This document shows, piece by piece, positions 51,210 to 63,170 of a stretch of 64,000 nt of DNA. The stretch is from Myxococcota bacterium (GTDB lineage: Bacteria > Myxococcota_A > UBA9160 > SZUA-336). Location: contig JBHHYV010000005.1 in the NCBI GenBank assembly GCA_046757685.1, positions 374 to 64,373 on the forward strand, given 5' to 3'. The stretch's first letter is position 1. Every line of letters starts with the position of its first letter. Made by a program: the position numbers and the translations under genes. The notes beneath the pieces are model-generated. The model did no database searches and was not told the DNA's origin. It saw only the letters and a list, made by a program, of their open reading frames with translations.

Positions 51210-51881
51210 TCAGATCTCCTGGGGCCTCGACGTGCGCCGGGCGCCCGCCAGTGTGCCCGGCACCCACGCGATCGCCACCAGTCCGGCGAGCAGCGGGGCG
51301 AGCAGGTGTGCGAAGACCAAGTGGAGGGGATCCGAGATCCCGCAAGCCACGTGGCCCGGCAGGGCGACGAGCGCGGCGATGCCCACGACGCCCAGCACTG
51401 CGGTCGCGACAGGGCGCCGCGGGACCCCATGGCCGATGAAGCGCGTGACGAAGTAGGCGGGCAGCAGCGCCGGAACCAGGGTGAGCCCCAGGCAGGTCAG
51501 ACCGCTCGCCAGGCCCGCGGCCGCGGGAGTGGGGAGCGCAACCAGGTAGACGGCGATCGCGACCGTGGCTGCCAGGCCGGCTCCGGCGATCGAGAGCCCG
51601 GCGCGCTCGAGCCGGATGCGGCCCGGCACACACGCGCCGAGAGCGGCCGCGAGAGCTCCGGCCGCCACGGCTCCGTGGCCCGCCACCGCCAGCCACGCGC
51701 CCGGGCGGCTCGGAGCCGAGCCGAACACACCCACCGCGACCGCGACCAGGCACGAGGCGGCGGCCGCCCCTACGGCCAGGGTGAGACCGAGCGCCGCCGC
51801 GCGGGAGAGCGGGGGCAGGATCTCGACCGGCCTCAGGTCCGCCGAGAGACGCTCGATCAGCTCGTCCGTGCTTGGACTCAC
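51210..51881 (-). CDS. anti-sigma factor, DUF1109/NrsF-like polytopic membrane protein
   Basis: 223 aa; short cytoplasmic N-terminus MSPSTDELIERLSADLRPVE then ~6 TM segments with conserved Cys; start overlaps the ECF sigma stop (ATGA). Confidence 0.65.
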   Translation of the reverse strand: MSPSTDELIERLSADLRPVEILPPLSRAAALGLTLAVGAAAASCLVAVAVGVFGSAPSRPGAWLAVAGHGAVAAGALAAALGACVPGRIRLERAGLSIAGAGLAATVAIAVYLVALPTPAAAGLASGLTCLGLTLVPALLPAYFVTRFIGHGVPRRPVATAVLGVVGIAALVALPGHVACGISDPLHLVFAHLLAPLLAGLVAIAWVPGTLAGARRTSRPQEI

Positions 51882-52480
51882 TCTCTCTCCCTCTCTCCCA
51901 GGATCGCGCGGAGCGCCTTGTAGCCACGGTGGGCGCGAACGCGCAGCGCCCCGGGACTGATACCCGCCTTCTCTGCCGCCTCGGCGACCGTGAGCTCGTG
52001 GATCTGGATGGACTCCACGGCCTGGCGCTGGGCCGGAGGCAGCGACTCGAGGGCACGCCGGAGCGAAGGTGAGAGCGGAGCCCCGACCCTGGAGGTGAGC
52101 GAGGGCCGCTCGTCGATCTCGGCTGCCGCCGTGCTCTCGGCCACCGCCAGCTCGCGTCGAATCCGGCGCATCCGAGCGCGCTGAGCATCGATGACCGCGT
52201 TGCGCGCAATCGCACGGAGCCAGCCACCAAAGGGTCGCCCGCTCTGATAGGTGTGGCGCGCCCGGTGCACCGAGATCAGCACCTCCTGCACGACGTCCTC
52301 CACTCTCGACGAATCCCTGAGCCGGAACCCCACATAGGACCGCAGGACCGGAAGGACCTCGCGCAGGAGCTTCTCGTAAGCGGCCTGGTCACCCCGCTGA
52401 GCGGCCCTCATCAGCCCGCTCCAGCGCGCTTCCTCTCGCGCCCTGCGATCCTGCGTCTGATCCTCGCCGTCCATACGCAC
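51878..52480 (-). CDS. ECF-type RNA polymerase sigma-70 family sigma factor
   Basis: 200 aa; region 2 (AAYEKLLREVLPVLRSYVGFRLRDSSRVEDVVQEVLISVHRA) and region 4 HTH (LPPAQRQAVESIQIHELTVAEAAEKAGISPGALRVRAHRGYKALR). True start may be the internal Met (..LMRAAQRGDQAAYEKLL). Confidence 0.85.
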   Translation of the reverse strand: MRMDGEDQTQDRRAREEARWSGLMRAAQRGDQAAYEKLLREVLPVLRSYVGFRLRDSSRVEDVVQEVLISVHRARHTYQSGRPFGGWLRAIARNAVIDAQRARMRRIRRELAVAESTAAAEIDERPSLTSRVGAPLSPSLRRALESLPPAQRQAVESIQIHELTVAEAAEKAGISPGALRVRAHRGYKALRAILGERERE

Positions 52481-52498
52481 ATCCCGGCGCTCGGGTTA
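52473..52498 (-). promoter_or_regulatory. ECF-type promoter motif GTAACC-N16-CGTA upstream of / overlapping the annotated sigma-factor start
   Basis: Minus-strand reading of ~52473-52498: GTAACCcgagcgccgggatgtgCGTA. Matches the GTAACC-N16-CGAA motif recalled for the Caulobacter SigF/NrsF system. Confidence 0.4.
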
Positions 52499-52552
52499 CA
52501 CCGCCCCGACCGCCTCTGGATCAAACCACACTCGATCGAAGAGCGCGACTGC

Positions 52553-52579
52553 AGGTAACTCTCGCGCGCTCCACCACGT
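52553..52579 (+). promoter_or_regulatory. second ECF-type promoter motif GGTAAC-N17-CGTA upstream of the DUF3179 gene
   Basis: Plus strand caGGTAACtctcgcgcgctccaccaCGTAtc; ~35 nt upstream of a strong SD (AAGGGAG) and the GTG start at ~52614. Confidence 0.4.
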
Positions 52580-52613
52580 ATCTGCCACACATGGCGGCAA
52601 GGGAGCGGAAGGC

Positions 52614-53588
52614 GTGAGGCGGGTCCCTACCTGGATGGCGCTCGTGCCTCTGCTGGCGCTCCTGTGGCCCGCCGGAGCGAACGCGAGCGCACCGAGGCTG
52701 AACGGCTTTCAGCTCGACCCTTCCGACGTACCGGTCGACGAGATCCTGCGGGGCGGTCCCCCTCGGGACGGAATCCCCGCACTCGACCACCCCGAGACGC
52801 TGCCCGCCGATCAGGCTCCGTGGCATCCCGAGGAGCTCGTCCTGGGGGTCGAGGTGTCGGGCGACGCGCGCGCCTACCCGATCGCGATCCTGAACTGGCA
52901 CGAGCTGGTCAACGACACGGTCGGGGGAGAACCGATCCTGATCTCCTACTGCCCCCTGTGCGGCAGCGGGCTCGTGTTCGACCGCCGCATCGACGGGGTC
53001 GCCCGCAGCTTCGGTGTCTCGGGGCTCCTCTACCAGTCCGACCTGCTGCTCTACGATCGCGAGTCGGACAGCCTCTGGTCCCAGCTCGAGTCGAAGGCCG
53101 TCACGGGCCCGGCCCGCGGATCGCGGCTGCGGGTCCTCCGGTCGGCACTCGTCCCCTGGGGCACCTGGCGCAGCCGCCACCCCGACACCCGGGTACTCTC
53201 TCTCGACACGGGGTACGGGCGCGACTACACGCAGTCACCCTACGGCGGATACGCACGCTCCGATCGCCTCTACTTTCCGGCACACCTGGATCGGCGCTAC
53301 CCGCCGAAGGCGCCCACCCTGGGCTTGCGGCTCGCCGACGGGACGGCGCGTGCGTTCCCGGCTCCAGAGATTCTGCGTGCCGGAGGTGAGATCGAGACGA
53401 AGTTTGCCAATCGACCCATCCGCGTGCGCTACGATGCCGCAGGGGGAACCTTCGATGTCACCGCGCCGCCCGACGTGGAGGTGATCGAGGCCTACTGGTT
53501 CGCCTGGTCGGCGTTCCACCCGAGCGCGAGCGTGTTCGTCGCGGTAGAGCCCGCGGCCGAAACCCATGGAGAGGAGACCTCTAGATGA
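52614..53588 (+). CDS. DUF3179-family secreted protein
   Basis: 324 aa; signal peptide MRRVPTWMALVPLLALLWPAGANA; DUF3179-like conserved blocks (PRDGIPALDHPE...ISYCPLCGSGLVFDRRIDG...LLYDRESDSLWSQ). Stop overlaps the downstream start (ATGA). Confidence 0.7.
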   Translation: MRRVPTWMALVPLLALLWPAGANASAPRLNGFQLDPSDVPVDEILRGGPPRDGIPALDHPETLPADQAPWHPEELVLGVEVSGDARAYPIAILNWHELVNDTVGGEPILISYCPLCGSGLVFDRRIDGVARSFGVSGLLYQSDLLLYDRESDSLWSQLESKAVTGPARGSRLRVLRSALVPWGTWRSRHPDTRVLSLDTGYGRDYTQSPYGGYARSDRLYFPAHLDRRYPPKAPTLGLRLADGTARAFPAPEILRAGGEIETKFANRPIRVRYDAAGGTFDVTAPPDVEVIEAYWFAWSAFHPSASVFVAVEPAAETHGEETSR

Positions 53589-54760
53589 CCCGACCCCGAC
53601 TCGTGCATGCCCTCGCCGCCTCGGCGATGGGCCTGGCCCTTCTCTGGGGCAGCTCGGCCGCGAGCGTGCAGGCTTCGGCGCTGCCGGCCCCCAGCACCTT
53701 GAACCCCTGTGCGGCCAAGACCCTGAATCCCTGCGCCGCCAAGACCCTCAACCCCTGTGCGGCGAAGACCCTGAATCCCTGTGCCGCCAAGACCCTCAAC
53801 GCCGCTGCCGCCCGGACCCTGAACCCCTGTGCGGCCAAGACCCTGAATCCCTGCGCGGCCAAGACCCTCAACCCCTGTGCGGCGAAGACCCTGAATCCCT
53901 GTGCCGCCAAGACCCTCAACGCCGCTGCTGCCCGGACCCTGAACCCCTGCGCGGCCAAGACCCTCAACCCCTGCCTGGCTCGCAAGCTCAATCCCTGTGC
54001 CGCCAAGACGCTGAATCCCTGCGCTGCGAAGCATTCGAGCGGGGACGGGGCCAGCCTGCTCGATCCGCGGACTGCGCGGCACCTGGTGACTCAGCTCGAG
54101 GTGAAGCCCCGCAGCATGATCCGGACCGTTGCCGCACACTCGAATCCCTGCAACCCGTGCGCAATGAAGCGGAACCCGTGCAACCCCTGCGCGATGAAGC
54201 ACAATCCGTGCAACCCCTGTGGCGCCAAGGGAAACCCCTGCAACCCGTGCGGAATGCGCAATCCCTGCAACCCCTGCGGAGGAGCGGCCCGCATCAACCC
54301 GTGCCAGTTCAAGCGTCCGACGGGGCTGTCGCTCGTGCGGGCCAGCCAGAAGGACCTCGTGGCCGAGGGCGAGAAGCTCTGGAACGACCGGTCGCTCGGC
54401 CGCAGCGGGCTGGCCTGCGCGAACTGTCACATCCAGAACTACATGCAGATGAACCCGACCTTCGGAAAGCCCTATCCGCACTACGTCGAGATGGTCCAGC
54501 AGCGCTCGGGTATCGACGAGGTCAGTGCCGACGAGATGGTGCAGTTCTGCATGATGGCCCCGATGGCCTCGAAGCCGCTGGGATGGCACTCGCGCGAGCT
54601 GGCCGCGCTGACCGCCTATGTCGAGCACATCCATCCCGGCTACCACCCCGTCGGAGGTGCCGGCGCCAACCCCTGCAACCCGTGCGGCATGAAGCACAAC
54701 CCGTGCAACCCGTGTGGCATGAAGCACAACCCCTGCAATCCATGCTCGAAGAAGATGTGA
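53585..54760 (+). CDS. secreted mono-heme c-type cytochrome flanked by Cys-rich NPC / CNPC (CxxC) tandem repeats
   Basis: 391 aa. Signal peptide MTRPRLVHALAASAMGLALLWGSSAASVQASA. About 15 x 8-aa repeats LNPCAAKT (with a 40-aa super-repeat duplicated). 5 x 10-aa repeats NPCNPC(A/G)MK(R/H). Cytochrome c core LVAEGEKLWNDRSLGRSGLACANCHIQNYMQMNPTF... (single CxxCH). 3 x C-terminal NPCNPCGMKH repeats. About 33 Cys in total. Confidence 0.75.
   Translation: MTRPRLVHALAASAMGLALLWGSSAASVQASALPAPSTLNPCAAKTLNPCAAKTLNPCAAKTLNPCAAKTLNAAAARTLNPCAAKTLNPCAAKTLNPCAAKTLNPCAAKTLNAAAARTLNPCAAKTLNPCLARKLNPCAAKTLNPCAAKHSSGDGASLLDPRTARHLVTQLEVKPRSMIRTVAAHSNPCNPCAMKRNPCNPCAMKHNPCNPCGAKGNPCNPCGMRNPCNPCGGAARINPCQFKRPTGLSLVRASQKDLVAEGEKLWNDRSLGRSGLACANCHIQNYMQMNPTFGKPYPHYVEMVQQRSGIDEVSADEMVQFCMMAPMASKPLGWHSRELAALTAYVEHIHPGYHPVGGAGANPCNPCGMKHNPCNPCGMKHNPCNPCSKKM
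53694..54040. repeat. ~15 copies of a 24-bp tandem repeat (ACCCTGAAYCCCTGYGCSGCCAAG), including a 120-bp block duplicated with 2 mismatches
   Basis: Seen directly; ~53697-53816 and ~53817-53936 are near-identical. Confidence 0.85.
54143..54306. repeat. 5 copies of a ~30-bp tandem repeat encoding NPCNPCxMKx; 3 further copies at ~54668-54746
   Basis: Seen directly (aatccctgcaacccgtgcgcaatgaagcgg and variants). Confidence 0.8.
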
Positions 54761-54770
54761 GGATCCCGGC

Positions 54771-56021
54771 TCAGCGAAGGAGCTGGCGGATCTCGCGGAG
54801 CAGGTAGCCTGACTTCTCGATCCGCGACCTCGCGCGCTCGATCTCGGCGCGGGCTCGCGGGTCCCGCAGGGACGGCAGCAGCACCCGGTACATCTCGCGG
54901 TAGTAGTGATCGGGGTCGATCCACACGCGGGCGACCAGGGCGCGAGCCCGCGGGTGCCGGGGCCGCTCGTAGTCCAGACTCACCGTCTGCCCGGGCAGGA
55001 CTCGCGTGTCGGAGCGTTCCCGCCCGGTCGACAGGTCTAGATCCCGCCCGATGAGAGCGTAGACCGACGTACCCTCGATCGGGTTTCCCGCCGAATCTTC
55101 CTGCTCGATCTCCAGACGGACCTGCGGAGTGACGTAGGTCGGGAACGCGTGTCCCACGTCGCGATTCCGGACGAGCAGCACGCTGGCATTCGGGCTCCGA
55201 GCCTGGAGCTCGATGTCGAGCGCCTGCCGAACCCAGTCGGCGTCGTGGATCCCTCGCCACAGGTGCGCGCGATCAGGCATGTGGCAGGTCTGGCAGGTGC
55301 GTCCCTCGCGTGCCTGGGGGCTGTCGCGCCACTCTGCCCAGGTGTTCTCGACCGGCTTGCCGGAGATTCCGGCATCATCGAAGAACTGGTGGCACTCGGC
55401 ACAGAAACGGCTCTCCCCGAACTCCGGGTGGGCCACGAAGCCGGCGTGCGGAGCCGGGTCGGCCGGCGGACCGGCTCCAGCGCGACGGACGGGGCCATGG
55501 CGTCGGTGCGCACGCACGTGGCAGCCGGCGCACACCAGACCTTGCGCGCGCAGCGCGGGGTCGAAGTCCGGGTTCGCGTCGAGCGTGGCGGTGTAGGGGA
55601 TCTGCTCTGCGAGCGGTGTGTGGCAGGTGTGGCAGCTCCGAGCCTGGGCGGGGTGGGAGAGCGATCCCTCGATCAGCTGGCCTTCGAGCCCGGGCGTCCA
55701 GCTGTGGGCGTGAACCGATGTCTGCCACTGTGCGAGCTGCAGCGGATGGCACGCGCCACATGTCGCCGGCTCGAGCGACGCCTCCGGAGCGCTGAACGAG
55801 CGTGGGGGGGGGCCCTGGGGAGGTACAGGCAGCGACCAGTAGCGCGCCAGGAAGGGTCCGAGTGTGCTCTCGCGGTCGAGACCCACCCCGGCCCCCGGGG
55901 CGAGCGTGCTCTGCATCGGGGACATCGCGCCCGTATCCAGGTCCGGTGGCAACGACGGCGGCTCCGGCGAGCGGCCACACCCGAGGGCGAGGAGCGCGAG
56001 CCCCGACCCCCATAGGTGCAT
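54771..56021 (-). CDS. multiheme (5 x CxxCH) c-type cytochrome, probable lipoprotein
   Basis: Track ORF 54771..56207; likely start MHLWGSGLALLALGCG (lipobox-like). Heme motifs CGACH, CHTCH, CAGCH, CAECH, CQTCH. Convergent with the repeat cytochrome with a ~10-nt gap. Confidence 0.8.
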   Translation of the reverse strand: MHLWGSGLALLALGCGRSPEPPSLPPDLDTGAMSPMQSTLAPGAGVGLDRESTLGPFLARYWSLPVPPQGPPPRSFSAPEASLEPATCGACHPLQLAQWQTSVHAHSWTPGLEGQLIEGSLSHPAQARSCHTCHTPLAEQIPYTATLDANPDFDPALRAQGLVCAGCHVRAHRRHGPVRRAGAGPPADPAPHAGFVAHPEFGESRFCAECHQFFDDAGISGKPVENTWAEWRDSPQAREGRTCQTCHMPDRAHLWRGIHDADWVRQALDIELQARSPNASVLLVRNRDVGHAFPTYVTPQVRLEIEQEDSAGNPIEGTSVYALIGRDLDLSTGRERSDTRVLPGQTVSLDYERPRHPRARALVARVWIDPDHYYREMYRVLLPSLRDPRARAEIERARSRIEKSGYLLREIRQLLR

Positions 56022-56133
56022 GTGCGACGATCTCGGGGCACGCATCTCGAGCAGAGGGTAGCCATCCTGGAAGCACGACGTCGCGGATCCGCTCGCGTGC
56101 ACCCGCGAACGCAAGGAGCGTAGGATTCGAGCA

Positions 56134-56766
56134 ATGGGAATCTCTTCGCGCATCCATGGCATCGGGCTCTCGCTGGCGTGGGCCGTCTTGCTCCTCGTAG
56201 GCATCACCTGCGCCGGAACTCTCTCGGGGGGCGCGGATCCTCAACACTACCGGCTCTCCGGGAGCTCCGACTGGCAGGTCGTGGGCTCCGACCGGGTTCT
56301 CGACGACCTCAGCGAGCGCTACCCGGAGTTCTTCGCCCTGGTCCTCGATCCGGATCGCCGCGAGGACATCGACCTGCGCGCGATTCGCGACGATCTGGAG
56401 CACCAGCCCGCGGACCGGCGCAACTACGACGCACTGAACGCCACGGCCATCGCCTACTTCGTGATGAACGAGCGCGCGGAGGAGGAGCGAGGCGGCGAGC
56501 TCTACTTCGTCCACTCCTTCCGGGCCGCCAAGCTGGTCGCCGTCCCCTGGCAGGCGTACGGACGTGTCGCGGACCCGGAGCTGCGCGACTCGATCCTGGA
56601 CTTCTTCGAAGACATCGCCAGCGGCAGCAAGCACTACTCGGCTCGCACCGCGAGCCGGCTGCACCGCGTCGTCTCCTCGCTGGCCCGCAAGGAAGACGAT
56701 GCGGCGAGGCTGGAGAGGATTCGCGCGCTCAGCGAGCGCCTGGCTCCTCCGGAGCCGGGCCGCTGA
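56134..56766 (+). CDS. hypothetical secreted protein or lipoprotein
   Basis: 210 aa; N-terminal signal ([28 protein letters not shown]), acidic soluble domain, no recognisable family. A weaker ECF-like motif GGTAGCC-N15-CGTC lies ~70 nt upstream. Confidence 0.5.
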
Positions 56767-59077
56767 GCGCTCCCTCGAGACCGGCATCGATGCGCACCCG
56801 TGCGGGGGGGAGGCAGCTTCGCTCGTTGCACGCCTGGTAGCGTACGTAGAGCGGACCCGGAGCCTGCACGGGGGCGTCGAGGGTCACCTGGCCCGAGTAG
56901 ACCCGAAGGGTCACGTCGGCGAACTCGGGCCGGAAGTCATGGCCCGGGGGGTAGCGGACTCCCGCGATCGCATCGGCCGCGGCGTTCTCGATCTGGGTGG
57001 GGATCAGGTAGGGGAGCGAGGCGGGGTTGGCGTTCACGTGCCAGCCCGCGGTGATGTGCAGTCGCACCCGCCGGCGCTCTGCGGAGGGCGGCGTCGATGC
57101 TCCGCTCGGCCCGGAGAGAACCTCGATGCGCACGCGATCCTCGCTGCGGGGAAGCCGTGTGGGGGCCGAAGGCGCCTGCGAGCCGCGCGCGACTCTCTGG
57201 GGTCGCTCCTGAAGGGCCAGCACCAGGCTTGCGAGAGCCGAAGGGGCGCGCGAGATCGGCTCGGAGAGGGCGGACGCCGCGCGGGTCCGCGCCTCGGCGT
57301 AGCGGGGATCGTCGGTCCGTGCGGCCAGCTCGGCGAGCACCCGGAGCGCAACCCCGCTCCCGGAAGGAAGCGCCCCGTCCTCGAGGGGCTGCGGGCGGAA
57401 GAGCAGACCATCGTTGCGCCGCGTGAGGTAGAAGCCGCCGAGCTCCGGATCCTGGAAGAGGCTCAGCATCTCGTCGGCCAGGCTCCGGGCCTGCTCGAGC
57501 CAGCGGGCGTCACCCGTGGCGGAGTGCAGCGCGAGAAGACCGTCCGCGAGATCGGCATAGTCGTCCAGCACTGCGCGCTCGCGTACCTGGCCGGCGATGT
57601 AGTCGCGGGCGAGTCCTCCCTCGGGCCGCCGGAGCCGCTGCAGCACGAAGCTCGCAGCGTCGGCTGCCAGCCGGACCCACTCGGGATGGTCCAGGCGCAG
57701 ACCCGCATCGACGAGTCCGCGGATGGCCAGCCCATTCCAGCCGGCGACCACCTTGTCGTCGCGCCGCACCTGCGGTCGCGCGCGCCGGCGCTGTAGCAGG
57801 CTCGCGCGCGCGGGGGCCTGTGACTCGATCCCTTCGAAGGAGGCCGTGGGGAGCCGGACCCGCAACACCCCCCGGCCCAGGTCGTCGCCCCCTCGGGTCG
57901 GCATCGGAGTCAGGGCGTAGACCGCGAGAAAGCGCTCGGCGCGCTCGGCCCCGAGAACCTGGCGGATCTCGGCCTCGGTCCACAGGTAGGACGCCCCCTC
58001 GACGTGACCGACCTCGGCGTCGAGCGCCGAGTAGAAGCCTCCCTCCGGATCGCGCATCTCGCCCTGCAGCCAGCGCACGATGTCCTCGCAGACTGCGCGA
58101 TAGAGGGGGCGCCGCGTTCGCTCCCAGGCCCGCGCATAGACGGAGAGGAGCTGGGCGTTGTCGTAGAGCATCTTCTCGAAGTGTGGAACGGACCAGCTGG
58201 GCTCGGTGGAGTAGCGGTGGAAACCGCCACCGAGCGCGTCGTGAATCCCGCCGAACGCCATCTCGTCGAGGGTGTGGGTGAGGCGCTCGAGATCCCCGGT
58301 CTCGCCGCCCAGGAGCAGCATCAGCTGGCTGGGACGGGGAAACTTGACGCGACGCGAGAAGCCACCGTGCAGCGGCTCGTACTGGTCGGCCAGCTCCCGA
58401 CGGGCGCGCGCGAGCAGCGCGGCGGGGTCGAGTGCGACCGAGGATGTGCCCGCGCGGCTCGCCGGTCCGCCGCGGCCCAGGACGCCCGCGATCCGCGCGG
58501 CGACCCGACGAACGCGGTCGGGATCGTCGCGCCAGACCCGCGCCACCTGCTCCAGGACCCTCGGAAAGCCGGGTCGGCCGGGCCGGTCTGTCGGCGGAAA
58601 GTAGGTCCCGGCGAAGAAGGGCTCTCCCTCGGGCGTCAGGAAGAGGTTGTTGGGCCAGCCGCCCTGGCCGGTCAGCGCCTGGGTCGCCGCCATGTACACC
58701 CGGTCGAGGTCGGGCCGTTCCTCGCGGTCCACCTTGATGCTGACGAAGGAGCGATTCATCTGCGCAGCGATCTCGGGATTCGAGAAGACCTCGCGCTCCA
58801 TCACGTGGCACCAGTAGCAGGTGCTGTAGCCGATCGAGACGAAGATCGGCCGGTTCTCGCGCCTGGCCCGCTGGAGCGCCTCCTCGCCCCAGGGGTACCA
58901 GTCGACGGGGTTGTCGGCGTGGAGCTGGAGGTAGGGGCTCGCCTCCCGAGCCAGGCGGTTGCGCGCCGCGGCGCCGGGGCTCCAGCCGGCCAGCACCGCG
59001 ATTGCGGCCAGGAGCGCCCCCGCGACAGGGCGACGCGACCCCCTCGCCGCCTCGGTCGAATCAGGAATGATTCTCAA
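56729..59077 (-). CDS. periplasmic thioredoxin-fold DUF255 (YyaL-like) protein with (alpha/alpha)6 domain and C-terminal DsbD-N-like domain
   Basis: Track ORF 56729..59632; probable TTG start ([38 protein letters not shown] signal peptide) preceded by GGAG. DUF255 block [59 protein letters not shown]; C-terminal ...[14 protein letters not shown] Cys pair. Confidence 0.7.
59058..59073. promoter_or_regulatory. AT-rich inverted repeat GAATCA-N4-TGATTC (Fur/PerR-box-like) at the divergent junction of the thioredoxin-like gene and the fur-family gene
   Basis: tcGAATCAggaaTGATTCtcaaatctcc; an AT-rich island in GC-rich DNA, overlapping the first codons of the thioredoxin-like gene and ~25 nt upstream of the fur-family GTG. 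Confidence 0.3.
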
Positions 59078-59098
59078 ATCTCCGCTAGCATAGCGCCC

Positions 59099-59569
59099 GT
59101 GGCCTCCGCGCTCCCCCAGCGTCGACACCGGACTCGCCAGCGCGAGCAGATCCTCGCGACCCTGCGCGCGACCGCGCGGCATCCGAGTGCTCGGGAGCTT
59201 CACCGCGAGCTGCAGCGCGACTGCCCACGGCTGGCGCTCGGGACCGTCTACCGAAACCTCGAGATCCTGGTGGCCGAGGGCCAGGTCCGCGAGGTCCCGA
59301 CCGCAGGTCGGGCCTCGCGCTACGACGGCAACCCGCTCCCGCACCATCACTTCATCTGCGAGTCGTGCGGCGAGATCCACGACCTGGACGTCCGGGTGCC
59401 CTCGGGTCTCATGGCTCGCGTCCAGGCGCGCTACGGGCTGCGCACGCGCCGCCTGCGCATCGACTTCTTCGGCCTGTGCCCCTCCTGTGGCGGCGCAGGG
59501 CCGAGGCGGACCCGTCGAACCAGCAACCACGCGGGAGTGACCCGCACAGAGGAGAGGAGCCATGGCTGA
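59099..59569 (+). CDS. Fur-family transcriptional regulator (PerR-like)
   Basis: C-terminal ~157 aa of track ORF 58004..59569 from GTG: [53 protein letters not shown]...[15 protein letters not shown]...[14 protein letters not shown] (Fur DNA-binding helix and two CxxC pairs). Confidence 0.8.
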
Positions 59570-59984
59570 TCTCAAGGGCACGAAGACCCACCAGAACCTG
59601 AAGGATGCCTTCGCAGGCGAGTCGCAGGCCAACCGCAGGTATCTCTACTTTGCGAAGGCCGCCGACATCGAGGGATACCCCGAGGTCGCGGGTCTCTTCA
59701 AGAACACCGCCGACGCCGAGACGGGTCACGCGCACGGGCACCTCGACTACCTGAAGCAGGTCGGCGACCCGGCCACCGACAAGCCGATCGGCGATACCTC
59801 GCTGAACCTGGTGGCCGCCGTGGCGGGCGAGACCTATGAGTACACGGAGATGTACCCGGGAATGGCCCGCGCGGCGCGGGACGAGGGCTTCAGCGATGTA
59901 GCGGAGTGGTTCGAAATGCTCGCCAAAGCCGAGAAGTCCCACGCCGGCCGCTTCCAGAAGGCGCTCGACACGCTCGACGACTGA
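59562..59984 (+). CDS. rubrerythrin-family ferritin-like diiron protein (no rubredoxin domain)
   Basis: 140 aa; ExxH diiron motifs ([14 protein letters not shown]; ETGHAHGH; [12 protein letters not shown]; AEKSHAGRF). Start overlaps the fur-family gene end. Confidence 0.85.
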
Positions 59985-60077
59985 GCCGCTCCGGCGCGGC
60001 GGGGGCCGGTGATGCACGCGCCCTCGCCGCCCGGAGGCGAGCGTCCCTCCTTCAGCCCTTCTCCCAGAGCGAGGCCC

Positions 60078-61367
60078 ATGACCGACCTGCCGCCGTCGCC
60101 CGCCTCCGAGGTCTCGATCCCACGCGCGACCGACCCCGGCTACCGCGACCCCCGCGCCCTCGAGGTCGAGCTCCGGCGGGTCTTTGCAAAGTGCCAGGAC
60201 TGCCGGCGCTGTCTTCCGCTCTGCCCCTCGTTCCCCACCCTCTTCCAGGCCCTCGATCGCCACGACGGAGATGCCGATCGGCTCGAGGCGGACGAGATGT
60301 GCTCCGTCATCGATCTCTGCTACCAGTGCAAGCTCTGCTACAACCACTGCCCCTACCATCCGCCTCACTCCTGGATGCTCGACTTTCCCAGACTGATGAC
60401 ACGCGCGAAGGTCGTCCGCGCGAGCGAGGAGGGGATTCCCTGGGCCGACCGGCTCGGAGCGCGCCAGGACCTGATGGGGCTCGTGTCGTGCCAGACGGCG
60501 GCGCTCACGAATACGGCGTTCCGGAGCCGCGCCCTCCGGCTGCTGATGGAGAAGGCCACTGGGATCGATCGACGCTGGCCGATGCCCCGCTACGAGCGCA
60601 GACCGATCTCGCGCTGGCTCGCCCAGCGTTCCCGCCCCGCCCATGCGCGTGAGGTGCTGCTCTTCACGACCTGCTTCGTGGAGTACTCCGAGGCCAGGAC
60701 CGCGCGCGCGCTGGTGCAGGTGCTCGAGCACAACGGAATCGGGGTGCGCGACGGCTACGAGGCCTGCTGCGGAGCACCCTTTCTGCACGCAGGCGACCTG
60801 GAGAGCGCGACGCGGAACGCGGAACGCGTCGTCGCCGCCCTCGCGCCCCAGGTCCGCGACGGGATCCCGATCGTCGTCCCGGGACCGACCTGCTCCTATC
60901 AGCTCAAGCGCGAGTACCCCGATCTGCTCGACAGCGAGGACGCGAGACGCGTCGCGGAGAGCGCCCTCGACATCGGAGAGTTCCTGTGGGCCCTGAAGGG
61001 GGAGGACGCCCTCTCCCGCGAGTTCCCCAGGCCCCTGGGCACGGTTGCCTACCACCTCCCCTGCCACCTGAAGTCGCAGAACATCGGCTTTCGGTCGCGC
61101 CAGCTGCTGCGACTCGCGGGTGCCGAGGTCCAGATGCTCGATCACTGCTCGGGGGTCGACGGGACCTGGGGCATGAAGGCTCGATTCTATGACCGGAGCC
61201 AGCGCGTCGCCGACCGGCTCGTCGACGCGATCCAGGCGATGCGCGCCGACACTGTCGCCACCGACTGCCCGCTGGCCGCGTTGCGAATCCAGGAACGGAC
61301 CGGCCGCGACGCCGTTCACCCCGTCGTTCTGCTACGCGACGCCTACGGGCTTCCGGAGCTCGGATGA
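60078..61367 (+). CDS. Fe-S oxidoreductase, GlpC/GlcF/HdrD-like (2 x [4Fe-4S] ferredoxin motifs + CCG domains)
   Basis: Track ORF 60009..61367; [12 protein letters not shown] and [12 protein letters not shown] cluster motifs, then cysteine-rich CCG-type regions (TTCFVEYS...ACCGAPF; PGPTCSYQ...LPCHLK...[11 protein letters not shown]). Confidence 0.75.
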
Positions 61368-61948
61368 GGCGGCTCGAGGCGGGTGAGATCCTGGACCTCA
61401 CGGCGTACGAGAAGGTTCGCGACGCGTTCCGCTCCCGGATCATCGCACTCAAGAACGATCGTCGGGTCGCGGTGGGCGATCGGCTGAGCTTTCTGTTCGA
61501 GAACCGGGACACGGTCTCGCTCCAGGTCCACGAGATGATCCGGACGGAACGACTCGTCGACCCCGAGGCGATTGCGCAGGAGCTCGAGATCTACAACGAG
61601 CTGATTCCCAAAGATGGGGAGCTCTCGGCGACCCTGATGATCGAGATTCCCGATGCGGGGGACATCCGGACGCAGCTCGATCGCCTGATCGGAATCGATG
61701 AGCACGTGCATCTCGATATCGGTGCCGAGTCCGTGCAGGCCACCTTCGATCCCAAGCAGTTCGAGGAGGACCGGATCTCGGCGGTCCAGTACGTGCGCTT
61801 CCCGCTCGGACCGAGGCTGGCGAGGGACTTCGTGGACCCTCGGATCGAGATCCGGCTTCGCGTCGCACATCCGGCCTACGTCGCCTCGACGACGCTCGGC
61901 GAGGCGACCCGCCGCGCGCTCGCGCGCGACCTGCTCCCCGAGGGCTGA
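61364..61948 (+). CDS. DUF3501-family protein
   Basis: 194 aa [64 protein letters not shown]...; start overlaps upstream stop (ATGA). Confidence 0.65.
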
Positions 61949-62024
61949 GAGGGCTCGTTCACGCCCTCGCTCCCCCTCGGGAAGCACATCGGTCTACACT
62001 TCCGACACAATCCTGGGAGGACAC

Positions 62025-63170
62025 ATGGCAGGACCCCTGACGGGAATCCGGGTGATCGAGCTCCAGGGCATCGGGCCCGGACCCTTCTGCGGAATGATGC
62101 TGGCCGACATGGGGGCGGAGATCTTGCGGATCGATCGCGCATCGAGCGTTCCCTCGCAGCCGCCCGAGGGCAGGCGCGCCGACATTCTCGGCCGAGGTCG
62201 CCGCAGCGTCGCCGTGGACCTCAAGCGCGCAGACGGGGTCGAGACGGTCCTGCGCCTGGTCGAGCGTGCCGATGTGATCTACGAGGGCTTCCGGCCCGGG
62301 GTCGCGGAGCGCCTGGGCGTGGGGCCCCAGGTCTGCCTGGAGCGCAACCCGCGCATCGTCTACGGCCGCATGACGGGCTGGGGGCAGGAGGGTCCGCTGG
62401 CGCAGGCCGCAGGGCACGACATCAACTACATCGCGCTGAGCGGCGCGCTCCACGCGATCGGCCGGGCCGGAGAACGTCCCGTTCCACCGCTCAACCTCGT
62501 CGGTGACTTCGGAGGCGGGGGGATGCTCCTCGCCTACGGCATCGTCTGCGCGCTCGTCGAGCGGGCGACCTCGGGCCGGGGTCAGGTCGTCGATGCGGCG
62601 ATGGTCGACGGCTCGGCGGCCCTGATGGCGATCATCTATGGAATGGCCAGCCTCGGCTTGTGGCGCGACGAGCGGGGAGTGAACCTGCTCGACACCGGTG
62701 CCCACTTCTACGACACCTACGAGACGCGCGACGGCAAGTACGTCTCGATCGGATCCATCGAGCCGCAGTTCTACGCCCTTCTCCTGCAGCTCACGGGCCT
62801 CGAGGGCGAGGATCTGCCGCGCCAGAACGACCGCACCGCGTGGCCCGCGATGCACGAGCGCCTGGCCGAGATCTTCCGGACCAAGACGCGCGACGAGTGG
62901 TGCGAGATCATGGAGGGCACCGACGTCTGCTTCGCGCCCGTACTCTCCCTCTCCGAGGCGCCCCAGTCGGCCCACGCCCGGGCTCGCAACACCTTCCGCG
63001 AGATCGACGGCGTCATCCAGCCGGCACCGGCCCCTCGATTCAGCCGCACGCGTCCCGAGCTGGACCGCCCGCCGGCCTACCCGGGGGAGCACACGGAGCC
63101 CGCGCTGCTCGAGTGGGGCTTCGAGCCCCACGAGATCGAACGCCTCCGGGAGGCCAAGGCCATCGTCTGA
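62025..63170 (+). CDS. CoA-transferase family III (CaiB/BaiF; alpha-methylacyl-CoA racemase-like)
   Basis: C-terminal ~381 aa of track ORF 61698..63170 from [38 protein letters not shown]; catalytic Asp region ...[13 protein letters not shown]. Confidence 0.85.

Follow-up and report, generated by a model that had tools for sequence, protein, structure and literature searches.

A secreted cytochrome with Asn-Pro-Cys repeat arrays and its predicted place in a SigF/NrsF-type stress module of a Myxococcota bacterium

We describe a gene for a secreted c-type cytochrome found in a stretch of 64,000 nucleotides from a Myxococcota bacterium (GTDB lineage Bacteria; Myxococcota_A; UBA9160; SZUA-336; assembly GCA_046757685.1, contig JBHHYV010000005.1, positions 374 to 64,373 of the forward strand). 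This stretch is called the window, and coordinates are counted from its first letter. The protein carries one heme domain of the SoxA/TsdA family, placed between arrays of a repeated Asn-Pro-Cys (NPC) tripeptide, and its gene is predicted to belong to an envelope-stress module controlled by an extracytoplasmic function (ECF) sigma factor of the SigF type and an NrsF-like anti-sigma factor. The parts belong to known kinds, namely the SoxA/TsdA-fold heme domain, the ECF SigF/NrsF regulon and the periplasmic buffer rich in one residue. The family libraries and the literature searched contain no description of the protein family, of the NPC module or of this SigF output, and the combination of a SoxA/TsdA-type heme, by prediction Cys-ligated, with a strict NPC module that also occurs as free peptides has not been seen before. 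We favour, with a probability of about 0.4, the reading that the protein is a periplasmic polythiol buffer against thiol-reactive metals or oxidants, in which the Cys-ligated heme, a neighbouring DUF3179 protein and a pentaheme cytochrome would be the redox wiring that re-forms the thiols.

The whole gene was read from the window and has the following features.

53585..54760, + strand: NPC-repeat cytochrome, whole gene, an open reading frame (ORF) of 391 amino acids
53585..53674, + strand: Sec signal peptide, amino acids 1 to about 30, with predicted cleavage between VQA and S (read directly from the sequence)
53699..54034, + strand: array 1 (N-terminal), 14 units of eight amino acids of the LNPCAAKT type, with a 120-bp higher-order repeat (repeat analysis)
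54143..54301, + strand: array 2, five NPCNPC units, in which CNPC forms a CxxC, plus INPC (repeat analysis)
54302..54658, + strand: SoxA/TsdA-family heme domain; CANCH is encoded at 54416-54430 and Cys322, the candidate distal ligand, at 54548-54550
54668..54745, + strand: C-terminal array, three NPCNPC units (repeat analysis)

A deposited entry for a hypothetical protein from a Myxococcota metagenome-assembled genome (MAG) has the identical sequence, and the N-termini of its homologues are equivalent to the signal peptide of the window protein. An earlier note made from the sequence alone (the original prediction) had proposed a secreted c-type cytochrome with Cys-rich NPC and CNPC arrays, and the reading frame, the signal peptide, the CANCH motif and the arrays bear this out. 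Array 1 covers amino acids 39-150 and contains ten LNPCAAKT units, two units without cysteine (LNAAAART), one LNPCLARK and one LNPCAAKH; the estimate of about 15 LNPCAAKT copies thus comes down to 14 units, ten of them exact. A spacer (amino acids 151-186) separates it from array 2, the five NPCNPC units of which lie at amino acids 187-231 with INPC at 236-239. The heme motif CANCH is at 278-282 and the three units of the C-terminal array are at 362-387; the five and three copies expected here stand. The cysteines, put earlier at about 33, number 32: 29 are in N-P-C, two in the CxxCH motif and one is Cys322.

According to Tandem Repeats Finder, the gene repeats with periods of 24, 30 and 120 bp. 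The 120-bp period corresponds to five peptide units and occurs in 2.7 copies at 91% identity. The fifth unit of this repeat is without Pro-Cys (LNAAAART) in both full copies (53699-54034, + strand), and the repeat looks like a recent block duplication of a unit that was already degenerate. Synonymous codons vary among the ten identical LNPCAAKT peptides, and pairwise comparison of all 14 units of array 1 gives 246 synonymous against 119 non-synonymous codon differences. Because the units vary in this synonymous way, the NPC repeat is kept at the peptide level, in the + frame. ORFs on the opposite strand and in other frames over the gene (such as 53492-54727, - strand) were rejected as shadows of the repeat, since the signal peptide, the heme motif and the homologues are found in the + frame only. 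A Pfam 'Cornifin' match to the window protein was also set aside, as an artefact of the Pro/Cys repeat. No in-frame AAY-CCN-TGA, which would point to selenocysteine, was found in the NPC arrays of the window or of 83 loci (80 genome loci and L081-L083).

The heme domain matches the Pfam SoxA/TsdA cytochrome c domain (PF21342) at amino acids 261-348 with 33.8 bits, against a gathering score of 27. In NCBIfam the window protein has a sub-threshold SoxA match alone. A profile made from 16 cores of the family finds as its best solved relative the SoxA protein of Rhodovulum sulfidophilum (E 7e-5), and the fold of the heme domain is nearest to the catalytic-type domain of TsdA and SoxA. The domain had been called class-I-like in the original prediction; the Pfam match and the profile search place it instead in the SoxA/TsdA family, with a probable His/Cys-ligated heme. 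The MQM motif singled out there is not conserved, and the conserved motifs of the family are PYPHxVxM and EMVQFCMxxPM. All of the 120 homologues inspected have a single CxxCH. In the AlphaFold model the core is predicted with high confidence (pLDDT 90-98) and the arrays mostly fall below 50, a low-confidence result that is consistent with the arrays being disordered.

The invariant Cys322 (EMVQFC322M) aligns in HMMER with Cys114 of the R. sulfidophilum SoxA protein, which we take to be the thiolate ligand of heme 1. The spacing from His282 to Cys322 is 40 residues, and the corresponding spacing in TsdA is 43 (His80-Cys123). An exhaustive search of 1.84 billion representative proteins delimited a core family of 267 clusters (E <= 1e-3), and 22 of its more distant members were read for ligand conservation. 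The cysteine at the ligand position is kept in 21 of these 22 proteins and is replaced by methionine in P0421. His299, Met303 and Met327 are variable in the same set; Met303 and Met327 are invariant in close homologues and become Ile, Val or Leu in distant ones that retain the cysteine. An axial ligand would be expected to behave as the cysteine does, being retained while these three positions vary. A low-potential heme ligated by histidine and Cys322 is therefore predicted to be the most likely state.

The window protein shares with SoxA and TsdA the heme fold, a conserved cysteine about 40 residues past CxxCH and a periplasmic location. It differs from them in carrying one heme, without SoxX or TsdA's C-terminal domain; no second heme domain is present within the protein, and a gene for a pentaheme cytochrome lies close by in many loci, as described below. 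The heme domain is flanked by NPC arrays, has no sox context and bears its own motifs, PYPH and EMVQFCMxxPM. In both SoxA and TsdA an invariant arginine four residues before the ligand cysteine (Arg119 in TsdA) binds thiosulfate (PMC4423706). This position in the NPC family is a nearly invariant methionine (Met318 in the window protein). We therefore place the heme domain in the SoxA/TsdA fold family but not among the thiosulfate-oxidising SoxA and TsdA proteins.

The regulatory genes and sites lie directly upstream of the operon that contains the cytochrome gene.

51210..51881, - strand: NrsF-like membrane anti-sigma factor, the gene of which shares 4 bp with the end of the ECF gene (topology, Cys130/Cys180)
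51878..52480, - strand: ECF sigma factor, SigF-type by promoter and partner (Pfam Sigma70_r2, Sigma70_r4_2 and Sigma70_ECF; NCBIfam sigma70-ECF, 82.5 bits)
52474..52499, - strand: SigF-type motif GTAACC-N16-CGTA of the ECF/anti-sigma operon, an exact match that ends 19 nt from the ECF GTG
52555..52580, + strand: SigF-type motif GTAACT-N16-CGTA of the DUF3179-cytochrome operon, with one mismatch, 59 nt before the DUF3179 GTG
52614..53588, + strand: DUF3179 secreted protein with a CPLC motif, translationally coupled to the cytochrome (Pfam DUF3179, E 3.8e-81)

The DUF3179 stop codon (53586-53588) and the cytochrome start (53585) overlap in ATGA, as the original prediction had noted in proposing translational coupling. 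The ECF-type promoter motif that it had also proposed is of the SigF type and is present in two divergent copies. The 134-bp stretch that separates the ECF gene from the DUF3179 gene contains both, and a search that allowed one mismatch to GTAACC-N16-CGTA gave these two copies and no others in the 64 kb, against 0.39 occurrences expected by chance. The sigmaF site of Caulobacter has been defined experimentally as GTAACC-N16-CGAA (PMC3511200); the last element is CGTA here, against CGAA in that consensus. The motif, with a spacing of 16 nt in every case, is conserved upstream of orthologous operons. Nine related loci have it just upstream of DUF3179 or of the cytochrome gene, among them L002, L003, L007, L008, L018 and L054 (DUF3179) and L006 and L036 (cytochrome). 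In L003 and L018 it also precedes the pentaheme gene, and L001 and L045 have it before ECF genes. The loci taken together contain 23 matches to the motif, against 4.65 +/- 2.2 in composition-preserving shuffles.

The anti-sigma factor has a 25-residue N-terminal segment, six hydrophobic segments and two cysteines, Cys130 and Cys180. The NrsF protein of Caulobacter has functionally important cysteines at C131 and C181 (PMC3511200). This agreement in topology and cysteine positions upholds the earlier assignment of an ECF/NrsF-like pair of the Caulobacter kind. The Pfam NrsF family (PF06532) matches below threshold (E 0.68; 10.2 bits against 26.8), with positions 1-201 of the 204 in the profile aligned. 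On the strength of the conserved promoter motifs and the NrsF-like layout of the anti-sigma factor, we consider it very probable that SigF/NrsF controls the DUF3179-cytochrome operon of this clade. In other clades the partners of the ECF factor differ or are absent from the vicinity.

A word-indexed search found 862 relatives of the window protein, and the architecture of 120 of them was inspected. All 120 have an N-terminal array of 4-25 NPC tripeptides and usually also a C-terminal array (0-18 NPC). N-P-C holds 95% of their 2282 non-heme cysteines, and it is followed by either A-A-K or another N-P-C. The commonest unit across the family is NPCAAK, which has one cysteine and neither histidine nor methionine. 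The copy number is labile: P0002 is 83% identical to the window protein over the aligned part and has 14 NPC in 232 amino acids, against 29 in 391. In a scan of one genome per species, relatives were found in 274 genomes from Myxococcota, Gemmatimonadota, Beta- and Gammaproteobacteria (Gallionella, Rhodoferax, Nitrosomonas), Entotheonella, Rokubacteria/Methylomirabilota and others. The family is common among bacteria of soil, groundwater and sediment and among sponge symbionts. The relatives are all without a name in the databases.

The NPC arrays are also found apart from the cytochrome. A small secreted NPC protein of 77-150 amino acids, in which a signal peptide is followed by nothing but NPCAAK or NPCNPCAAK repeats, lies near the cytochrome gene in 21 of 81 loci (here and below, counts refer to genes within 6 kb of the cytochrome in 80 clustered loci plus the window). 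A large database holds 140 stand-alone NPC peptides, all unnamed, from Nitrosomonas, Nitrospinota, Binatia, Cyanobacteriota and others, and no NCBIfam model matched the small peptides. P0183, a protein of 117 amino acids from a Methylohalobius crimeensis MAG, has a DUF2282 domain of the bufferin BUF1 type followed by a C-terminal NPCAAK array; among the sequences seen it is the sole fusion of the NPC module to another known domain. The distant members of the core family consist of a signal peptide and the core, without NPC arrays. One of these comes from the cultured Rhodovibrio sodomensis DSM 9895 (L070 1345-4131), in which a core-only cytochrome of 159 amino acids without NPC adjoins an AhpD/CMD-like gene and DUF3179. 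The original prediction had treated the arrays as an integral part of the cytochrome; free peptides, the DUF2282 fusion and array-free cores indicate instead that they are an accessory, portable module.

Two proteins with the same heme core have tails of another composition. P0073 (412 amino acids) has 64 cysteines in C-NPC-NPC-A-x-A-C units split by poly-Glu runs, and P0508 (166 amino acids) has KCHGKCKG...CGAKCGAKCGA in place of NPC. Cys-rich tails of different kinds have thus been recruited more than once. The architecture had been called undescribed, and this stands for the sources covered: Pfam and NCBIfam hold no model of it beyond the heme domain, no paper containing the repeat strings was found in the literature searched, and searches on DUF3179, or on DUF302 with YeeE, returned nothing relevant to the NPC cytochrome.

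The most frequent neighbour of the cytochrome gene, which was not mentioned in the original prediction, is the gene for a pentaheme lipoprotein (31 of the 81 loci, five lineages). It is convergent with the cytochrome gene in Myxococcota, and elsewhere, in several phyla, it is directly downstream on the same strand.

54771..56021, - strand: pentaheme lipoprotein cytochrome with a C-terminal immunoglobulin (Ig)-like domain, convergent with the cytochrome gene (alignment, AlphaFold2/Foldseek)

Read from the ATG at 56021, the family alignment shows five invariant CxxCH motifs and a lipobox cysteine, Cys15. The ORF spans 54771-56207 (- strand) and the deposited product has 381 amino acids; since the family alignment keeps the lipobox, it is probable that the start was annotated too far downstream and that the protein is a lipoprotein. 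Its AlphaFold2 model has one strong Foldseek match (5ze8, E 6e-12), the cytochrome c552 (LPC) of Thermochromatium tepidum, which is also a pentaheme cytochrome with an Ig-like domain. The match covers the whole length of the fold, including the five CxxCH and the C-terminal beta-sandwich. Pfam gives weak matches to MtrC/MtrF domains, and the NCBIfam ExtKL model matches weakly (33 bits against a cut-off of 250). The MccSep/ExtKL polysulfide reductase consists of a pentaheme part and an Ig-like domain, with a Cys-ligated heme (C239) and a selenocysteine (U325) (bioRxiv 10.1101/2025.11.18.688581). The pentaheme protein of the window differs in being a probable lipoprotein and in having no invariant cysteine other than Cys15, and so no equivalents of C239 and U325. 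A Cys-ligated heme would in the NPC system come from the separate NPC cytochrome.

DUF3179 is found in 23 of the 81 loci, from five lineages. The CPLC motif is present in 22 of the 23 homologues from these loci, and selenoprotein forms of DUF3179 have UxxC/T (PMC9312934). Together these point to a predicted redox-active or metal-binding centre. A sequence search with DUF3179 against solved structures found no match. DUF302 is also present in 23 loci and a YeeE-type Sulf_transp protein in 18, in each case in Beta- and Gammaproteobacteria only. The mercuric reductase MerA (NCBIfam 676 bits, cut-off 600) occurs in 13 loci, among them L019, L025, L033, L044, L049, L050, L055, L057, L061, L067, L071 and L080, all from Beta- and Gammaproteobacteria apart from two Myxococcota loci. 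An AhpD/CMD-like gene is found in 12.

Several further genes were noted. In the window, a 210-residue ORF without a Pfam match (56134-56766, + strand) is divergent from the pentaheme gene, and homologues with 51-53% identity lie beside the pentaheme gene in L006 and L008. A SigF-type motif was sought upstream of this ORF in the window and was not found; related loci have such a + strand motif close to the 5' end of the pentaheme gene (L008 11630 and L007 5882), which in L008 is at the start of the homologue of this ORF. Two kilobases from the cytochrome gene, 56729-59632 (- strand) encodes a protein with DUF255 (Thioredox_DsbH, E 4e-73), a C-terminal DsbD_N domain and an apparent signal peptide, which could be a source of periplasmic reducing power. 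It was considered as a conserved supplier of reductant and rejected, as a counterpart is found in none of the 80 related loci. In L081 and L082 (9133-11971, Entotheonella-type) the NPC cytochrome gene lies between two AhpC/TSA-redoxin fragments and a gene of the chlorite dismutase family, a context that hints at the chemistry of oxidants or chlorine species. Further along the window, 60009-61367 (+ strand) encodes a protein that combines CCG (Cys-rich, HdrD/GlpC-like) with 4Fe-4S dicluster domains, adjoined by a family III CoA-transferase (61698-63170). These two genes probably belong to unrelated metabolism.

We suggest that these parts act together in a stress-induced buffer of thiols. NrsF would release the ECF sigma factor, which would then transcribe from GTAACC-N16-CGTA promoters the sigma operon, the DUF3179-cytochrome operon and, in relatives such as L003 and L018, the pentaheme gene as well. 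The exported cytochrome would supply the periplasm with about 29 Asn-Pro-Cys thiols, carried by disordered tails the copy number of which is free to vary. These thiols may serve as a high-capacity decoy or buffer for thiol-reactive agents, the candidates being soft metals (Cu, Cd, Hg) or oxidants such as hypochlorite. Cys-ligated hemes form and cleave S-S bonds in TsdA and SoxAX (PMC4423706) and also in the pentaheme enzyme MccSep. The heme of the NPC protein, with Cys322 as distal ligand, might likewise make and break S-S (or S-X) bonds on the NPC cysteines, jointly with the CPLC protein DUF3179. Electrons supplied through the neighbouring pentaheme lipoprotein would allow the pool to be regenerated and not consumed, and stand-alone NPC peptides in other genomes may be the same substrate in trans. 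Redox wiring of this kind would suit the recurrence of pentaheme and DUF3179 neighbours across five lineages and the MerA, AhpD-like and AhpC/TSA genes that other loci add. The analysis shows the architecture, the assignment to a family, the conservation, the synteny and the promoter motifs; how the heme is ligated, how reactive the thiols are, which way electrons flow and what signal induces the genes are inferred. In a more demanding form of this proposal the buffer recycles itself, that is, the Cys-ligated heme, fed by the pentaheme protein, and DUF3179 catalytically reduce, or load and unload, the NPC thiols of the protein's own tails and of the free peptides; this we consider rather unlikely.

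Other observations weigh against the thiol buffer. No SigF-type motif was found upstream of the pentaheme gene in the window, where one was sought. An ECF gene is present in only 19 of the 81 loci; the ECF families differ, and eight of the loci, from Beta- and Gammaproteobacteria, also have a zf-HC2 anti-sigma gene. Core-only cytochromes without NPC, such as that of Rhodovibrio, keep their link to DUF3179; the heme domain therefore has a role of its own without the arrays, which limits every reading centred on them. Free thiols in the oxidising periplasm would be targets of DsbA. The frequent YeeE-type transporters and DUF302 proteins of Beta- and Gammaproteobacteria point towards sulfur or selenium handling.

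This last observation leads to the main rival explanation, in which the protein is a combined carrier and enzyme of sulfur or selenium metabolism and the NPC cysteines act like the swinging cysteine of SoxY. By means of the SoxA-like heme, species of sulfane sulfur, thiosulfate or selenium would be attached to them oxidatively or set free from them reductively, the arrays would store or shuttle persulfides and polysulfides, the pentaheme protein would link to the respiratory chain and the YeeE-type transporter would move the product. The nearest family is indeed SoxA/TsdA, and the target of SoxAX is a cysteine within a flexible carrier peptide. The trio of cytochrome, DUF302 and YeeE/Sulf_transp is present in 18-23 of the 81 loci and on the contig of P0120, the pentaheme protein shares its fold class with the LPC c552 of a purple sulfur bacterium and weakly matches ExtKL/MccSep, a polysulfide and selenite reductase, and selenocysteine forms of DUF3179 exist. 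However, the thiosulfate-binding arginine is a methionine here, the loci showed no sox, dsr or sqr genes, and neither YeeE nor DUF302 occurs in the loci from Myxococcota and Gemmatimonadota, the window included. A SigF/NrsF promoter suggests control by stress and not energy metabolism, and the NPC arrays lack in-frame TGA. We regard this explanation as possible but unlikely. A static metal sponge, a reading close to that of the original prediction, with Cu(I), Cd, Zn or Hg bound in thiolate clusters as in metallothionein and a heme that only senses or reports the load, appears doubtful. SigF regulons respond to Cu, Cd and chromate, CNPC provides CxxC pairs, methionine and histidine lie close to the arrays (GMKH, AMKR), P0183 joins an NPC array to a bufferin-type domain, and MerA is a neighbour in 13 loci. 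The commonest unit, NPCAAK, nevertheless has a single cysteine and neither histidine nor methionine, the MerA link is of narrow taxonomic range, and purely stoichiometric binding leaves the conserved Cys-ligated heme, the pentaheme protein and the CPLC protein unexplained.

Two further alternatives give the NPC cysteines another part to play. The protein may be an ordinary electron-transfer cytochrome working in an extracellular or periplasmic chain with the pentaheme protein, the arrays being tethers or tails that bind surfaces such as metal sulfide or iron minerals. Disorder and variable length of the arrays, core-only homologues, weak matches of the pentaheme protein to MtrC/MtrF and the presence of the family in Gallionella, Rhodoferax and MAGs from groundwater or sediment would all suit this; near-invariance of N-P-C across phyla is not expected of a mere linker, and arrays at both ends of the protein and as free secreted peptides, the stress-type promoter and the conserved cysteine at the ligand position make it improbable. 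It is highly improbable that the protein is the precursor of a modified peptide, in which an unrecognised maturase such as DUF3179 or a C92/YiiX-like protein converts the NPC cysteines to thioethers or heterocycles. Bufferins do set a precedent as Cys-rich, Sec-exported precursors of ribosomally synthesised and post-translationally modified peptides (RiPPs) under SigF control, a strict tripeptide could serve as a recognition site, and DUF3179 is a co-translated protein without known function. The scanned neighbours include no MNIO, DUF2063 or radical-SAM genes, though, and DUF3179 also occurs beside core-only cytochromes without NPC, while the small NPC peptides often have no DUF3179 neighbour.

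The thiol-buffer reading can be compared with two known outputs of SigF/NrsF. MrpX of Azospira is a Met-rich sacrificial sink for hypochlorite that belongs to a SigF/NrsF regulon and is recycled by YedY (PMC4436054). The NPC system resembles it in the type of sigma pair, in divergent promoters of the same consensus and in a secreted low-complexity protein, rich in one oxidisable residue, that adjoins a potential recycling redox partner. The residue is cysteine and not methionine, and the presumed recycling would be heme-based (Cys-ligated heme, pentaheme protein, CPLC protein) and partly fused to the buffer, in place of the molybdoenzyme of YedYZ (MsrPQ). Bufferins are chelators with Cys-derived groups that protect against copper, also in a SigF/NrsF regulon (PMC11626156). 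Like these copper-linked RiPPs (DUF2282 or BUF_6/12Cys, with MNIO maturases), the NPC protein is a Sec-exported, Cys-rich SigF product by prediction, and one NPC array is fused to DUF2282 as described above. The window protein itself has no Pfam DUF2282 or BUF signature and is far larger, repetitive and heme-bearing. DUF692 and DUF2063 maturases, which the original prediction had reported missing, are absent among the long ORFs of about 42-63 kb of the window; short ORFs were not exhaustively scanned.

To our knowledge, the upkeep of periplasmic thiols and the SigF/NrsF weapons against metals and chlorine are known from few cases, namely MrpX with MsrPQ and the bufferins. Rhodovibrio sodomensis DSM 9895 is a possible experimental entry to the pair of heme core and DUF3179. 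If the protein is a sulfur carrier, it would represent a new branch of Sox-like sulfur biochemistry. If the buffer recycles itself, it would be a regenerable periplasmic equivalent of glutathione, powered by the respiratory chain and directed against soft metals or hypochlorite. This would be new chemistry, and the SigF/NrsF effectors would then include a heme-based type, the third after MrpX/MsrP and the bufferins. Should the reading as a redox buffer be true, it would bring new chemistry to the defence of the cell envelope against stress, and DUF3179, the LPC-type pentaheme cytochromes and the NPC peptides, all three of them orphan families, would gain a function.

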